Notes under the pieces: model-generated
What the model saw: only the letters and a program-made list of their open reading frames with translations
Databases searched by the model: none
What the model was told of the DNA's origin: nothing
Program-made: the position numbers and the translations under genes
Shown: positions 1 through 7,936 of the stretch, in pieces
Numbering within the stretch: position 1 is the first letter of the stretch
How the letters are laid out: every line of letters begins with the position of its first letter
From: Candidatus Krumholzibacteriia bacterium
GTDB lineage: Bacteria > Krumholzibacteriota > Krumholzibacteriia > Krumholzibacteriales > Krumholzibacteriaceae
Direction of reading: 5' to 3'
Length of the DNA stretch: 64,000 bases
NCBI GenBank assembly: GCA_963836185.1
Contig: CAWIIQ010000001.1
Location: forward strand, 1,952,001 to 2,016,000

Positions 1-2991
1 CTTTCCCGCTCGATTCCCGTCCTCATCGCCGCCGCGGCGGTCTTTCTCGTTCCGCAGCGGGTATCGGGCCAGGACGAATATGTACAGTCAAAGCCTTACC
101 AGCTCAAATACAGGGCCTACGAGACAGAGGACCTCAGGATCTTCTACTTTTATCGCGAGCAGGAGTATGTCATAGAGCACGTGGCTCGCTGCTTCGAGAA
201 CGCGTTCCGGTATCACCAGAAGTTCTTCGATTACACGCCGAGTGGCGAGGTCACGGTCTATTTCAATGACGACGATGACTACGGATACGCCGGCACCACT
301 GTCATCCCGAACAACTGGATCACCCTCGGCATCGAGCCGTTCGAGTATGTATACGACACATGCCCGACTAACGAGCGGATGAACTGGGTGATGAACCACG
401 AGCTCGTCCACGTCACCGCCTCCGACCAGGCTACCGGGTGGGACTCGAGGTTCAGGAAGCTCTTCTTCGGAAAGGTCCACCCTGTCGCGGAGGATCCCGT
501 CTCTATATTCTACGCATACCTCACTACGCCCCGACTCTACTCTCCGCGCTGGTACCATGAGGGTATCGCAGTATTCATGGAGACATGGATGGCAGGCGGT
601 ATCGGACGATCGCTGACTGGTTACGACGAGATGACCTTCAGGGCGATGGTCCGCGACAGCATGCAGTTCCATACCGTCGTCGGACTCGAATCGGAAGGGA
701 CGGCGAAGGATTTCCAGATCGGCCAGGTGTCGTATCTCTACGGCACGAGGTTCTTCAGTTATCTCTCACTTATGCACGGTCCGGAATCCGTCATCGAATG
801 GGTGCGCCGCAACGAGGGAAGCGGCGCCTATTTTTCGACACAGTTCCGGAATGTCTACGGCGCCTCGATCTACGAGAAATGGGACGAATGGATAGAATTC
901 GAGAAGGAGTGGCAGACGACCAACCTCGACGATTCTATCCGGCAGTATCCCGTCACTCCTTCCAGGCAACTCTGTGAGCGGCCTCTCGGCTCGGTATCGA
1001 GGGAGTTCTTCGATCCCGGAGAAACGAAAACTGTACACAGCGGTAAACTATCCCGGCGAGTTCTCCCACATCGCCGAGATAGATATCGATTCGGGAAAGA
1101 TGCGCAAGATCTGCGAGATAGAGACCCCGGCCCTCTACTACGTCACCGGACTCGCCCACGACCCGGAGAGCGGCACTCTCTTCTTCACCACCGATAACAG
1201 CAGGGGCTTCCGCGACGTTAACTCGGTCGATATAGAGACAGGGAAGACGAAGTCGCTCTGCAAGGATATCCGAACCGGCGACCTCGTCTACTGCCGGGCC
1301 GATTCGACGCTCTGGGGCATCATGCACAATGAGGGATTCTCCAGCATCGTGATGTTCGTTCCTCCCATACAATGACGGATACGAGCTCATCAAGCTCAGG
1401 TACGGGATCGACCTGTTCGATATCGATATCTCGCCGGACGGCAAGTATCTGACCGGCACGATGACAGACATAAGCGGCCGGCAGAGGCTCATCAGGATGG
1501 AGACGGAAAGACTGATGTTCGGGGACGGTACCTGGGAGCTGATCCACGAGTTCGCGGACAATAACGCGGCCAATTTCGTTCACTCGCCCGACGGGCGGTA
1601 CCTTTACGGGACATCGTACGTGACCGGCGTATCGAATATATTCAGGTTCGATCTCGAGCAGTGGAAGCTCGAGGCGATGAGCAACTTCGAGATCGGGGGC
1701 TTCCGCCCCCTTCCCGTATCGGACGATTCGCTGATAACATTCACTTACACCGGGAGAAGGCTTCGAGCCTGTGATGATACCGGTAAAACCGATCGAGGAC
1801 GTTGCAGTCGATAAGGTATCTCGGCCAGGCGGTCATACTGGAGCACCCCGTCCTCGACGGACTGGAAGCTCTCGTCGCCGAAGCAGATCGAGATCGACTC
1901 AATGATGACATACGAGGGCGAGTACAGCCCGACAAAGAACCTGCGGGTGACCTCCCTCTACCCGATCGTCGAGGGGTACAAGGAATACGGTACGATCGGG
2001 CTGCGGTTCAACATGATGGACCCGGTCGGGATAAACGCTCTCGACATGGCCGCCTCATACACACCGAACACGAACCTGCCGGAGAACGAACGGGCCCACT
2101 TCAGGTTCAAGTTCTCGAGGGGCACGATGGGGGGCGACAGGGTATTACAACCGCGCCGACTTCTACGACCTCTTCGGCCCGACGAAGGTGAGCAGGAAGG
2201 GACATTCGCTCGCCCTCGATTACGACTACGGATTCGTCGTCGACAGGCCGAAGAGGCTCGGCCTGAACGTCCGCGCCGCCGCCTACGGCAACCTCGAGTA
2301 TCTCCCCCACTACCAGAACGTGCAGGCGACGATAAAGGATTTCTACACTCTCGAGGGGTCCCTCCACTTCAGGCACACAAGGGGAACGATCGGCGGGATA
2401 CAGGCGGAGAAGGGGATGCTCTTCTCCCTGAACAGTTATAACTCCCTGGTCAACGGCGACCTCTACCCCCTCTTCTACGGGCACCCTGGATTACGGTGTC
2501 CTGCTTCCATGGGACCATTCGTCGATATGGCTCAGGACATCGGGCGGCTTCTCCTTTGGAGACAGGGATGAATCGAACTCGTACTTCTTCTTCGGGGGAT
2601 TCGGGAACAACTGGGTCGACCACAAGAGGGTCAACAGGTACAGGGAGTTTTACGCCTTCCCCGGCGTCGAGCTCAACGAGATCGGCGGCACGAACTTCCT
2701 CAAGGGGATGGTCGAATGGACGCTGCCGCCCCTGAGGTTCTCCTCCTTCGGAAAGCCGTCGCTCTATGCCAACTGGGCGAGCCTCGCCTTCTTCGGATCG
2801 GTCATCGCGACCAATGTCGATGCCGGACTACGAAGGGGTCGAGGTGGCAAATGCGGGCACACAGCTGAACCTGAAGATCGTATTCTTCTCGTCGCTGCAG
2901 ACGACCTTCTCGGCCGGTTACGCTTTCGCTTTCGAGGAGGGCCGTAGCGCCGAGAGAAGAGTTGATGCTGTCCTTGAAGATATTGAGATAA
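1..2991 (+). CDS. Large exported protein: gluzincin-type metallopeptidase domain, beta-propeller and C-terminal beta-barrel (Omp85/BamA-like). 5'-truncated and split by several frameshifts
   Basis: Frame 1 is open from base 1 with a hydrophobic signal-like stretch (IPVLIAAAAVFLVP). HELVH and PRWYHEGIA form a HExxH+E zinc motif. TolB/PD40-like repeats (DISPDGKYL, VHSPDGRYLY) follow, then alternating beta strands to TAA at 2989-2991. Fragments 181-1197, 974-1375, 1461-1814, 1902-, 2188-, 2708- and 2766- join by frameshifts. Confidence 0.7.
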
Positions 2992-3010
2992 ACAGAAGGG
3001 GTATTGTGAG

Positions 3011-4111
3011 TTGAACTACCTACTGGCCATCCTCCCCGTCCTCGTCTTCCTCCTCGTCCTCAAGGCGATGGATTCGTTCAAGCTCGTCAGTTTCCGGCAT
3101 GTCGCGGCAAGCCTCGCGGCCGGATTCGCCGCGGCTGTCGCCGCCTTCTTCATCACGAAGCAGCTCATGCCGGCACTCGGTCTCTCCATATACTCCCCGA
3201 TATACTCGAGATATATCGCTCCCGATGCTCGAGGAGGCGCTTAAAGGGGCCTGGATCATCTGGCTGCTCTGACGAGGCGCAGGACAGGATTCATGGTCGA
3301 CACGGCGATACACGGCTTCGCGATAGGTGCCGGGTTCGCAATCGTCGAGAACGTATACTATCTCAATAATATGACAGGGTACGGTATAGCCTTCGGCATA
3401 GTCCGCGGATTCGGACCGGCCCTGATGCACGGCACCTCGACAGCGATCTTCGGGGTCCTCGCGAAGACAGCCTCCGAGCTGCGCGGCTCGGTATCCACCG
3501 CGACGGTGCTTCCCCGCCTTCCTGATAGCCGTTCTGATACATTCGCTGTTCAATCACTTCTTCATCTCCCCCCTGGTCTCGGCCCTGGCCCTGCTCATCG
3601 GCGTCCCGCTGGTGATGACGCTTGTCTTCCAGCCAGAGCGAACGCTCACTGCGCAAGTGGCTCGGGATAGGCTTCGATTCCGACCAGCAGATGCTGGAGA
3701 TGATAACCTCCGGGCGATATCGCGAGCACACCGGTCGGCGAATACCTCATCTCGCTCAAGCGCACCTTCACCGGGGAGACGGTCGCCGACATGCTCTGCT
3801 GCCTCAGGCTGCATCTCGAGCTCTCTATCAGGGCCAAGGGTATCCTGCTGATGAGGGAGAACGGATTCGAGCCTCCTCCCGATCCGGATGTCGAGGAGAT
3901 GTTCAGGGAACTGAAATACCTCGAGGGCCGCATAGGGGTGACGGGCAAACTCGCGCTGCACCCGCTGCTGCGCTGGAGCAGCCGCGATCTCTGGCAGCTT
4001 CACATGCTGTCGGGATTCATGCCGGGGAAGCGACCTCTGATCCCCGAAAAGAGAAGGGCGACCGACTGGCGGCCGCCCTTTGATTCCAAATACTGGCTTA
4101 GCAGGCTCTAG
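3011..4111 (+). CDS. prsW: PrsW-family glutamic intramembrane protease with C-terminal extension (frameshifted; true 3' end uncertain, ~4040-4111)
   Basis: Motifs LEEALKG, GFAIGAGFAIVEN and R-x7-H (VRGFGPALMH) are spread over fragments 3011-3244, 3293-3670, 3622- and 3791-4111. Confidence 0.75.
4047..4081 (-). terminator. Intrinsic terminator downstream of the histone gene (possibly bidirectional)
   Basis: Minus strand reads AAGGGCGGCCG-CCAGT-CGGTCGCCCTT followed by CTCTTTT. Confidence 0.75.
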
Positions 4112-4285
4112 AAATCGAACGGGTAGATGGTCTTGCGCTTGTTGCCCTTCGCCCTCTCGGCGGCGGCCTTTGACCATCTCGGCGATCTGAGCGTTAAGAG
4201 CCTCAGCCGCGTCTCCACTCATCCTGAGACCATGCTTCTTGGCCAGATCCTTGATCCTCGAGGCGTAAACGAAAGTCTCTGCCAT
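4108..4285 (-). CDS. Bacterial histone-fold protein (Bd0055/HBb-like), 58 aa, with one extra base at 4169-4171
   Basis: Removing one A from GTC AAA G gives MAETFVYASRIKDLAKKHGLRMSGDAAEALNAQIAEMVKAAAERAKGNKRKTIYPFDF* (stop at 4108-4110). It carries the RKTIxxxD histone L2-loop motif, a strong RBS (AGAAGGAGGG) and its own terminator. Confidence 0.85.
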
Positions 4286-4386
4286 CTTATCCCTCCTTCT
4301 TTCTGTCGTTTGACAGGCTTAGAGACGAGTTGCTTACCTTTTTACCTGAACGGTAGCCTAAACTGCTTCCATTTGCCTTGTCAACG

Positions 4387-5085
4387 TCAATTGTCACTTT
4401 TTTTAAGGATTATTCTAGCATCGGCGATGACGCATCTTTCCTCCGTACAAAGCACCGGATTGAGATCTATCGATTCAATCTCGTCTGTCATCTCGACGAG
4501 CAGGCTCGAAAAACCGACGACCAGTTCTTTCAGCCTGGCGATATTGACACCGGCCGCTCCGCGGAAGCCGCGCAAGTACGCTCCCCGCCTTTAACTCGTC
4601 TATCATCGACTCGACGATTATCTTCAGTGACAGGCGCCATCCTTATCGCTGTATCCTTGTAGATCTCTACGCCGACACCGCCCATACCGGCCAGCACCAC
4701 AGCTCCGAACTGCTCATCGATCTTTCCGCCGACGATGACCTCTATCCCGGAGAGCATCTCCTCGACGAGGATCCCCTCGAATCCTTCGATCCCGCTGAAC
4801 CGGCCGGCGACCTCCCGCATCGCTTCGGGACCGTCTATACCGACGGCTACGCCCCCGGCAGTCGGACTTGTGGATGACATCGGGCGAAACGATCTTCGCC
4901 ACGACGGGCCAGCCGATCCGTCCGCCCGCCTCGACCGCCTCCTCTTCAGTCCTTACCCATTCGAACCGGGGTACGTCGAAGCCGGCTTCGGCGAAGAGGC
5001 GCTTCGCCTCCGGCTCGAGGACCCAGCCATGTTTCTTCGATTCGTTGAGTATGGCGGCAGCAGTTTCGCTCAGCATGGCTTGCAC
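4387..5085 (-). CDS. Acetate/acyl-CoA ligase (ADP-forming) beta subunit, ATP-grasp (frameshifted)
   Basis: IGWPVVAKIVSPDVIHKSD(A)GGV, GILVEEM, GMGGVGVEIYKD, LRGFRG and SIDLNPV...IADARI occur across fragments 4714-5085, 4530-4880 and 4387-4575. Confidence 0.85.
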
Positions 5086-6437
5086 CTCTTCATCGCCTCG
5101 ACCATCAGGACCGCTCCTTCGATCGAGTGGGAAACTGGAACATTGTTGAGCTGGAAGCCCTCTATGATCATCCTGTATTTCTCTACGTGCGGCACGTAAG
5201 CCACGATCGGTTTACCCTCCTCCTGGTATACCTGGCTGAGCCTCGCCCCCACATCGGAGGTGACCTCGGGGATATATGGCAGGAGAAGCATGATAACGCA
5301 GTCGATGTCGTCAAGCCTGCTCAGCTCACCGGCCGCTATCACAAAATCGTCATCCCGGGCGCTGCCGGTGAGATCTATCGGATTGCCAAGCGAGGCGATA
5401 GGCTGGACGCTCTCTGAGAGACGTCCGCGTATCCTGCTCTGCACCTCTTCGGAGAACTCCGGAACGATGAGGCCCGAAGCCTCGCAGGTATCGACGGCGA
5501 CGGCGCCGTGTCCCCCGCTCGCCGTCACTATCCCGACTCTGCCCTCGATCCCCCTCGGGTAGCAGCTCAGCGATTCACAGAAGGAGACCATCTCGTACTC
5601 GTCCTTCGCCTCGACGATCCCGAACTGGCTCATCACGGAGGAAAATACGTGTAGTCACCCGCGATCGAGGCGGTATGGCTCGATACCGCCCGGCTGCCGG
5701 CCTGGCTCTTGCCGGCCTTCATGATTATGACCGGTTTCGGGCTTCTGCTCGCAGCCAGGACGAACTCCCGTCCCTCACCGGGGCCGAATCCTTCGACATA
5801 GAAAGCGATGACATCCGTCTTCTCGTCCCTCGCGAAGTACTTGAGCAGTTCGAGTTCTCCAACAGCCGCCTTGTTCCCGATACTGACCGCCCTGGAGAGC
5901 CCTATCCCCTGTCCCGCGAATTTCACCATCTGGTCGACGAGTATCCCGCCGCTCTGGCTGACGATGGCTACGTTACCCGCCTCGGGCCTTACCATCCTCT
6001 CGCTCGGCAGGAAAGAGAGAATCGACCAGCCCGGAAGAATATATCCCGAGACAGTTGGGGCCTATTATGGGGAAATCGGCCTCCGCGGCGATCTCTTCGA
6101 ACTGCTGCCGCAGGTCGAGCCTGCCCGTCTCGGCGAATCCTCCCGATATCACGGCTGCCCCGCCGACCCATGCGTCGATGCATTCCCTCAGAACGCCCGG
6201 TACATGCTCGGCCCTCACAGCGATGATAGCCAGGTCGATCTTCTCCGGGATCTCGGAGATCGAGGTGTATATCTTTTCCTTGTGGTACATCCCGCCCTTC
6301 GGATTCACTCCGAAGACCTTCACCGGGTAGCGGAAGAAGTTTTTATTATAGATGATATTGGCGGGGTGTCGCTCATTGCTCAGCGACAGTCCGACAACAG
6401 CCATCGTCTTCGGCTCGAACAGGGTCCTGAAATCCAA
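5070..6437 (-). CDS. Acetate/acyl-CoA ligase (ADP-forming) alpha subunit, CoA-binding (frameshifted)
   Basis: LFEPKTMAVVG, ISGGFAE, IIGPNCLG, VSQSGG, active-site SHTASIAG and NPIDLTG occur across fragments 5973-6437, 5633-5995 and 5070-5636. Confidence 0.88.
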
Positions 6438-6499
6438 GAGTCCTCCTTGTGCGTGCGCTTTACTTCAGGTGTCCAATGTGCAACAGCGAAGCCTCAGTG

Positions 6500-7825
6500 T
6501 CAAGTGCCGAGCGTCTCTTCGCCGCCCTCTGCTTCAAGGATCTCCCGCCTCGCCTTCTCCTCATCGACGAACCAGAGCAGGACCGCGCCCCCGATGAAGA
6601 GGATCGAGACCGATGTGATGCCCAGCCTTGTCGCCGTCTCAGCCCGGGCGCCGAGCGATCTCAGCGCAAGGCCGGTCGCTCCGATCAGTACCGGCCCCAT
6701 GACAGCAGCGAACTTCCCGATCATATTGTAGAATCCGAAATATCTCGCCGACTTCTCCTCGGGTACGATCCCGGCGAAGAGCGATCTGCTCAGGGCCTGT
6801 ATACCTCCCTGCACGAGGCCGACCGATACGGCGAGGACATAGAACTCCTCGCGGCTGTCCATCAGCGCCGCCCATACAGTGACGAAAAGATAGACGCCTA
6901 TCGCTATGAAGATCGCGCGACGGGCTCCGATCCTGGCCCCGATCCGTCCGAAGGCGATCGCCGATGGAAACCCCACAAACTGCGTCACGAGCAGGGCCAG
7001 TATCAGGTCGTCACGCTCGAGGCCGATCGACATACCGTAATCGACGGCCATCCTGACGATCGTGTCGACGCCGTCTATGTAGAGCCAGTAGGCGATCAGA
7101 AACAGTAACAGTGTTTTCATCCTCTTGAGCATCTTGAACGTCCCGAACAGATCAGATAATCCTTCCTCTATCGATCTTCTGATTCCGGCTGTCACTACGG
7201 ACCGCTTTTCCCTGACAAAGAGTATCAGGGGAATCGTAAAAACGGCCCACCAGGCTCCCACCGTGAGGAATGAATACCGCACCGCTTCCTCAGCCCCGGC
7301 GAGCCCGAAGGATGCGGGCCTGAGCGTCATCGCCACATTAAGGGCAAACAGAAGCCCGCCGCCGAGATATCCGAGGCCGTAACCCAGCGCCGATACTCTC
7401 TCCCTCTGCTTCGGCCCGGCGACCGATACAAGAAGCGCATCGCTGAAGACGATGCTTCCGCTGAATCCGATAGAGGCGAGGACGAATACGAGGATCGCCG
7501 CCTTCCAGTCACCGCGCGAGACCATCCAGAGTGACGCCGTCATCAGCGCGCCGAGAAAAGCGAAGAAGACGAGGAACCTTTTCCTTGCCGATCCGCGGTC
7601 GGCTATGGCGCCGAGCACGGGAGCGAGCAGGGCCACGGTGATACCGGCGAGCGAGTTGGCGAGGCCGAGGCGCGCGGTCGAGACTGTCGTATCAGCGCCC
7701 GCGCTCCAGTACTCGTTGAAGAAGACGGGAAAGAATCCGGCCATCACCGTCGTGGCGAAGGCGGAGTTCGCCCAGTCGTACATCGCCCAGGAGAATATCG
7801 CTTTTTTTCCGGAATCGCCTGTCAT
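6500..7825 (-). CDS. MFS transporter, UMF1/ATG22-like family
   Basis: SWAMYDWANSAF, LAPVLGAIAD and QALSRSLFA..PEEKSARYFGFY motifs; about 12 TM segments. Likely start is ATG 7825. Confidence 0.88.
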   Translation of the reverse strand: MTGDSGKKAIFSWAMYDWANSAFATTVMAGFFPVFFNEYWSAGADTTVSTARLGLANSLAGITVALLAPVLGAIADRGSARKRFLVFFAFLGALMTASLWMVSRGDWKAAILVFVLASIGFSGSIVFSDALLVSVAGPKQRERVSALGYGLGYLGGGLLFALNVAMTLRPASFGLAGAEEAVRYSFLTVGAWWAVFTIPLILFVREKRSVVTAGIRRSIEEGLSDLFGTFKMLKRMKTLLLFLIAYWLYIDGVDTIVRMAVDYGMSIGLERDDLILALLVTQFVGFPSAIAFGRIGARIGARRAIFIAIGVYLFVTVWAALMDSREEFYVLAVSVGLVQGGIQALSRSLFAGIVPEEKSARYFGFYNMIGKFAAVMGPVLIGATGLALRSLGARAETATRLGITSVSILFIGGAVLLWFVDEEKARREILEAEGGEETLGT

Positions 7826-7872
7826 TTCATCGATTATATACCACCCGGTCAGTATGGAAACAGAAATCTTCC

Positions 7873-7936
7873 TTGACAACCAATTTACTTCGGAACATAT
7901 TATGTACGATATACGTACAATACTATGTATATCGTA
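7873..7936 (+). promoter_or_regulatory. Sigma70 promoter and candidate TetR operator
   Basis: TTGACA (7873-7878), 17-bp spacer, CATATT. Directly after it is a perfect inverted repeat TACGATATAC-N12-GTATATCGTA (7905-7936), just upstream of the TetR ATG at 7954. Confidence 0.65.

Follow-up and report, generated by a model that had tools for sequence, protein, structure and literature searches.

The window analysed here, a 64,000-nucleotide stretch of DNA from a Candidatus Krumholzibacteriia bacterium, in all likelihood encodes a 58-residue histone that is face-to-face (FtF) in type, whose gene is broken by one surplus base that very probably stems from an error of assembly, and whose product is predicted to form a ring-shaped homotetramer wrapping some 60 bp of DNA irrespective of sequence. 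The gene, identified by comparison of reading frame, orthologues and fold, lies on the minus strand at 4108..4285 and consists of 58 codons and a stop, with the one surplus base. It starts with an ATG at 4285 and ends with a TAG at 4110-4108. A single four-letter step at codon 39 gives the 58-residue product P0001; its first 38 residues are read in one frame and its C-terminal part in the next. P0001 ends in KRKTIYPFDF, the motif quoted by the earlier note, and is basic (pI 9.7; K+R 11 vs D+E 7). The locus is single-copy in the genome (92.5% complete), in which no second histone or DUF1931 gene and no match to PF09123 are found.

DNA alignment places the surplus base at 4167..4171 on the minus strand, where any of three A (4169-4171) or of two G (4167-4168) could be the additional one; the same protein results whichever is removed. 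Relatives read AAG GCC (five of six) or AAA GCC (one of six) in this region of the alignment, so the surplus base may be A or G. The deletion of one A that had been proposed does yield a 58-residue basic protein, but the base to be removed may be a G. Downstream of the break, the read-through frame differs from six same-genus genomes at 0-5 of 60 nt and 0-2 of 20 codons; with so few differences, it does not arise by chance. Purifying selection on the histone orthologues is shown by their substitution pattern (mean pN 0.034 vs pS 0.334, 15 pairs).

The frameshift creates a 243-aa ORF (3554..4285, minus strand), in which 38 histone residues are followed by the antisense of a PrsW gene. This ORF had been called meaningless, and that judgement is borne out: it is present, but its product forms a cluster of one member in the protein collection, on a single contig that matches this one in length (2,314,873 bp), and has no family match beyond the histone part in Pfam or NCBIfam. 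Its singleton status and the intact orthologues rule it out as a real protein.

Fold, subfamily and predicted assembly

In Pfam and NCBIfam, P0001 has sub-threshold histone matches only: PF09123 (DUF1931) scores 14 bits against a cut-off of 21.8, and the archaeal histone family NF043032 (archaea_histone) scores 20 bits against a cut-off of 50. The intact orthologue has no histone match at E<=0.001. Among PDB sequences, the best match of P0001 is HLp (9QT0, E 6e-8), with an alignment that is gap-free over residues 3-58; HTkC (0.004) and HBb/Bd0055 (0.005) follow. A profile of 69 sequences gives the same order (HLp 5e-21, HTkC 1e-17, HBb 2e-15), with HMfA at 2e-4.

Structure work was done on the orthologue P0002 from genome G001, which is identical to P0001 at 57 of 58 residues. 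The AlphaFold model of P0002 (pLDDT 81, pTM 0.55) contains helices at 8-17 and 24-47, then a three-residue turn at the C-terminus. It superposes on HLp with a TM score of 0.89-0.90 and an rmsd of 1.0 A, on HBb with 0.86-0.89 and on HTkC with 0.85-0.86; canonical histones give 0.54-0.69. The fold-match check suggested earlier therefore finds an HLp-like histone fold by both PDB sequence search and structure comparison. In alpha3 histones, helix 3 has 3-4 residues (PMC11390915, in part); the model has a helix 3 of this length and a shortened helix 2. The modelled fold places the protein among the alpha3 histones, without choosing between the HLp and HBb subfamilies.

The chain stops one residue past D57 in every intact orthologue. 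Helix 3 had been described as truncated; a short helix 3 is normal for alpha3 histones, and nothing is lost at the C-terminus, because HLp too ends at the matching Phe. Two other histone types were considered and rejected. Firstly, an HMf-type nucleosomal histone has a full helix 3 of about ten residues; here the chain ends after D57 and NF043032 is below its cut-off. Secondly, a DUF1931 pseudodimeric histone has two folds in about 140 residues; this protein has 58 and PF09123 is below its cut-off.

FtF histones are characterised by a predicted ring-shaped tetramer, the motif RxTxxxxD and an Arg and an Asn at the dimer-dimer interface; the interface Arg and Asn are absent from bacterial dimer histones (both from sections of PMC11390915). 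The RxTxxxxD motif, which forms the RD clamp in loop 2, is present here as R50, T52 and D57. The dimer-dimer residues are present as R44 and N48, and the stop follows F58; R44 and N48 occur in 69/69 aligned homologues. The helix-1 DNA-binding lysines of FtF histones are found as K12 and K16: position 12 is K or R in 68/69 homologue rows, and position 16 is K in 58/69.

The suggested AlphaFold comparison of dimer and tetramer was run on P0002. Its four-copy model scores 0.80 against 0.29 for the best control, on a complex score that was calibrated with two copies only and mostly reflects the dimer; the mark is reached by 20/30 solved homodimers and 1/23 single chains. The runs, made with an alignment built in this analysis, agree in at least 98% of contacts, with a partner pLDDT of at least 87. 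Besides the dimer interface, contact to a second dimer is predicted at residues 43-50, 54 and 56-57. The pass may reflect memory of solved complexes like those of HLp and HTkC, and the model points to likeness to such complexes, not to binding.

The protein might instead be a bacterial dimer of the Bd0055/HBb kind, which bends DNA as a dimer and forms no tetramers; we consider this improbable. HBb is matched in sequence (E 0.005) and in fold (TM 0.86-0.89), and K51 creates an RKT motif, which is ascribed to bacterial dimers in parts of PMC11390915. However, the E value of HLp is five orders of magnitude better, R44 and N48 are present here as in all 69 aligned homologues, and the four-copy model makes a confident second-dimer contact on these interface residues. 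Bacterial dimers are defined by the lack of the interface Arg and Asn and of any confident multimer above the dimer; here the two residues are present and a second-dimer contact is confidently modelled. Bd0055/HBb or HMf had been named as nearest kin; the closest are of the tetramer-forming FtF type, HLp and HTkC.

As an FtF histone, the protein should, by prediction, assemble into antiparallel dimers. Two of these would meet face to face through loop 2, the short helix 3 and the last part of helix 2, with R44, N48, R50, D57 and the terminal F58 as predicted contact residues. By analogy with HLp, some 60 bp of DNA would be wrapped by the homotetramer ring, whatever the sequence. S9, R10, K12 and K16 of helix 1 and the loop residues G24, K49, K51 and T52 would bind the phosphate backbone, and binding round the ring would compact the nucleoid. 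In this presumed chromatin role, the histone would work alongside HU/IHF, not in their place. It would be one packer among several, because this genome has three HU/IHF-family genes and such genes are present in 61/61 genomes tested; these counts also rule out replacement of HU by the histone.

Origin of the surplus base

The histone gene is unbroken in 6/6 same-genus genomes (58 codons, 90-98% identical), and it is intact in G008, from a second genus (79% identical). Of the genomes in the DNA alignment, only this one carries the additional base at codon 39; the surplus is seen in 0/7 relatives. The protein collection contains the exact P0001 sequence, which comes from one ENA contig of 1061 bp and belongs to a cluster of 25. 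The proposal that a histone-fold gene is masked by a one-base frameshift is thus upheld by the intact same-genus copies and the HLp-like fold.

Many other genes are broken in this assembly, including rpoB, rpoC, fusA, rpsL and nusG. The rpoB gene is in three pieces here and without frameshift breaks in G001, G003 and G006. Counted against intact G003 genes, the housekeeping genes fusA, rpsL, rpoC, rpoB, rplK and nusG contain 11 frameshifts in 11,688 nt (five of six genes affected, 0.94 per kb); the same six genes of the control genome G006 contain none. Five genes adjoining the histone contain 21 frameshifts in 7,464 nt (four of five affected, 2.8 per kb around the locus). Insertions account for 29 of the 32 counted frameshifts. 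The probability of at least one frameshift in a gene of histone size is 0.39 at the local rate and about 0.15 at the housekeeping rate. Counts of frame changes by tblastn are lower (10 and 3, vs 11 and 21) because single alignments span close shifts. The frameshift load is heavy, biased towards insertions and spread over the whole assembly, with C1:72700-87400 and window positions 1-7900 as examples. Split genes or frameshifts noted in this genome should by default be taken for assembly errors.

A true frameshift, by which this strain would carry a freshly inactivated histone gene, is very unlikely. Source-sample reads are not among the runs found; of the five runs matched, the best contains 0.13 of the words, which points to relatives and not to the source. 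In run X2, a low-depth contig over 4119-4262 has 143 letters for 144 nt, with three mismatches and one gap somewhere within, which speaks for an error. Loss of the histone is tolerated in relatives, since the gene is found in 7/42 genomes of the family and not in most of its genera. Against a true mutation, rpoB is interrupted twice and rpoC five times in this assembly, and a living cell could not carry such breaks. Furthermore, the gene, its RBS, its promoter-like site and its hairpin show no further decay, and the exact read-through protein is found on another contig.

Programmed +1 frameshifting by the ribosome, or slippage of the polymerase, giving the 58-aa histone and a 243-aa extension, would fit the position of the surplus base at a short A run but has a negligible probability and is ruled out by the intact orthologues, as 0/7 relatives have the surplus base and the 243-aa product is a singleton whose tail is antisense to the PrsW gene and has no family match.

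Expression signals and neighbouring genes

On the minus strand, a Shine-Dalgarno sequence, AAGGAGG (4292..4298), lies 6 nt upstream of the ATG and is invariant in 8/8 genomes; the strong RBS noticed earlier is confirmed. Directly upstream of it, an alignment read by eye shows a leader hairpin with a 5-bp stem (4303..4316, minus strand). The stem is kept and the 4-nt loop varies among seven genomes of the genus; the hairpin may protect the message or tune translation.

A promoter-like site with an 18-nt spacer is present at 4355..4384 (minus strand) and is recognised by conservation; a consensus promoter scan gives no sites. It has a perfect -35 box, TTGACA (4384-4379), and a weak -10 box, TAGGCT (4360-4355). 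TTGACA is invariant in 8/8 genomes, G008 included, which supports an own promoter; in G008 the -10 box is TAGTCT and the spacer is unrelated. A terminator-like hairpin of 11 pairs with a U-rich tail is found downstream (4046..4080, minus strand) by scan, fold shuffles and conservation. The scan finds one stem, at 4080-4054, where shuffles give 0.6 +/- 0.7, and is not significant alone; the fold has a z of -2.7, and 2/200 shuffles are equally stable. The hairpin keeps its position in six relatives. An own terminator, as had been proposed, is therefore backed by the hairpin, its U-rich tail and its conserved position, though not by the scan alone. The gene probably has a sigma-70-type promoter of its own, with transcripts ending at this hairpin, which may end both the histone and the PrsW transcripts.

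The gene had also been described as highly expressed and monocistronic. Both descriptions are conjectural. A codon-usage proxy, weak since it rests on 55 codons and a weak bias, gives -0.065 for the histone; three translation genes score +0.02 to +0.04, and five neighbouring genes -0.004 to -0.055. The proxy lends no support to high expression, of which the strong RBS and the conserved promoter-like site may be signs. The scan finds no terminator between the upstream ATP-grasp gene and the histone. The ATP-grasp gene ends 3 nt upstream of the -35 box on the same strand. A contig of run X1, about 95% identical to 4287-5078 on the minus strand, covers the ATP-grasp gene together with the intergenic DNA and stops 2 nt short of the histone ATG, where it has a loose end of 20 nt of poly(A). 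As this is one contig, and its RNA status is a guess, it hints at best that transcription continues into the leader of the histone gene.

The upstream gene (4387..5085, minus strand) encodes the ATP-grasp subunit of an acyl-CoA ligase and has three apparent frameshifts on orthologue comparison. Downstream lies a convergent gene for a PrsW-family membrane protease (3011..4040, plus strand), with six apparent frameshifts relative to its G003 orthologue. ATP-grasp, histone and PrsW genes follow one another in this order in 6/7 histone-positive genomes of the family; G006 has the histone and no PrsW match in the locus. At 21 ATP-grasp loci of histone-negative family members, neither histone nor PrsW is found within up to 1.5 kb downstream. 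The PrsW-family gene is preceded by a gene for a 1028-aa PD40-repeat protein (1-2990, plus strand). Contig C5:1-12503 is a second copy, 90-92% identical, of C1:1943419-1954985, which ends at about position 2985 of the window; in this copy, the large PD40-repeat gene is in one frame. The C5 copy probably comes from another strain or species that shares the bin.

Distribution and comparison with known systems

Matches to the histone profile are found in 139/208 Krumholzibacteriota genomes, including 87/125 of those of high quality. Families f4 (83/91), f5 (7/7), f6 (19/23), f8 (9/10) and f9 (12/13) are rich in matches; f7 (1/12), f1 (7/42), f2 (0/1) and f3 (0/8) have few or none. Within the family of this genome, genera g1 and g3 alone are positive. 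The gene is not found in 44/51 other genomes of the order; consequently, the histone is not needed across the order.

In a tree of 60 rows and 56 columns, the g1/g3 histones form a group of their own (99/93), apart from the main type of the phylum (100/98), a group that was named after the sequences were seen. Nine of 41 phylum rows were left out of the tree: three with a profile match on a tail and six near-duplicates. Grouping g1/g3 with the main type gives an AU test p of 0.08 with P0041 and of 0.25 with two more rows, so that a common origin is not rejected; without P0041 the p is 0.007, which is confounded because P0041 nests in the main type. A horizontal origin of the g1/g3 type is possible. 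A pattern search of the genome contigs gives no confirmed relatives among 598 pattern matches. One tentative scenario, which we hold to be rather doubtful, is that the phylum, so far unlisted as such, is rich in FtF histones beside HU/IHF, with near-universal presence in five families, that this order lost the main type, and that g1/g3 regained a separate type, with its own promoter and terminator, by horizontal transfer. If true, close relatives that have a DNA-wrapping histone could be set against others that lack it, as a comparison provided by nature.

Other histones were observed in the phylum. Four f8 genomes (G055, G050, G060 and G076; loci L011, L021, L022 and L068) have a second FtF-like histone besides the main type, with a long Lys/Arg/Ala-rich N-terminal tail; such tails are common among bacterial FtF histones (PMC11390915, in part). 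The second histone of G048 (L018, G048:C16:52360-52533) looks Bd0055-like and lacks the interface Asn. Among proteins P0015-P0040, most top profile matches are 97-150 aa long with two tandem FtF-like folds (e.g. P0016).

Automatic annotation had been expected to miss the gene. This is true of the present assembly, for which the 243-aa product is on record, and of the Pfam cut-offs; however, JGI names several intact orthologues 'histone H3/H4'. The published passages drawn on here assign FtF histones mainly to Spirochaetota, Planctomycetota, Bdellovibrionota and Myxococcota. A full-text literature search finds no paper joining Krumholzibacter with histone, and a narrow search on histone distribution finds no paper. 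The phylum is not mentioned in the portions used of the supplements of PMC11390915 (main distribution-figure PDF excepted) and PMC12701072. In the tables drawn on from PMC10627809, one Krumholzibacterium genome is present in Table S4 (18,344 assemblies) and none in Table S1 (protein list), although Table S1 includes, under a different name, a protein that has the motif of the main type. Published distribution figures may already show Krumholzibacteriota.

Earlier work has described the FtF family, with its likely mechanism, and has solved structures; the present protein is an ordinary member in a little-studied phylum, and a specialist would not be surprised by it for this reason. With it, the short list of histone-bearing bacteria gains a lineage; the case also shows a histone concealed by an error-rich assembly. 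The more useful result is the distribution: homologues are common in the phylum, present in only two genera of this order, and occur beside HU/IHF. This lets one ask whether FtF histones are main chromosome packers or an add-on. To our knowledge, organisms of this lineage are uncultured.

HMfA and HMfB share the histone fold and the RxTxxxxD motif with this protein, with a weak profile match (E 2e-4); they have a longer helix 2 and a full helix 3, which are absent here. HBb/Bd0055 of Bdellovibrio bacteriovorus (PDB 8FVX, 8CMP, 9EZZ) shares the alpha3 fold and an RKT...D motif. In contrast to the present protein, it has no Arg/Asn at positions 44/48, its chain extends past the motif and it is reported as a DNA-bending dimer. 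HTkC of Thermococcus kodakarensis (PDB 9F2C; PMC11390915, in part) has the same short alpha3 fold in a 59-aa PDB chain (TM 0.85-0.86); it is archaeal, 28% identical, and has Glu-Gly in the solved chain where Gly-Asn48 is found here.

HLp of Leptospira perolatii (PDB 9QT0-9QT2) is closest in sequence and fold, with 38% identity. According to parts of PMC12701072, HLp forms a tetramer of 26 kDa, in which R49, S52, N53, R55, T61 and F63 make the hold, and wraps about 60 bp; Leptospira lacks HU, and hlp is located near smc. Here there are three HU/IHF genes, and the neighbours are the acyl-CoA ligase subunit and PrsW genes. The N-terminal tail of HLp is absent here, and its T61 corresponds to F56. 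HLp numbering is that of this protein plus 5: R49, N53, R55, D62 and F63 correspond to R44, N48, R50, D57 and F58, and both chains stop at that Phe. Among eleven DNA-contact positions named for HLp in the same parts of PMC12701072, T27, T56 and R59 are replaced by M22, K51 and Y54, and K15 by Arg (R10); the remaining seven, A13, S14, K17, K21, G29, K54 and T57, are identical here as A8, S9, K12, K16, G24, K49 and T52.
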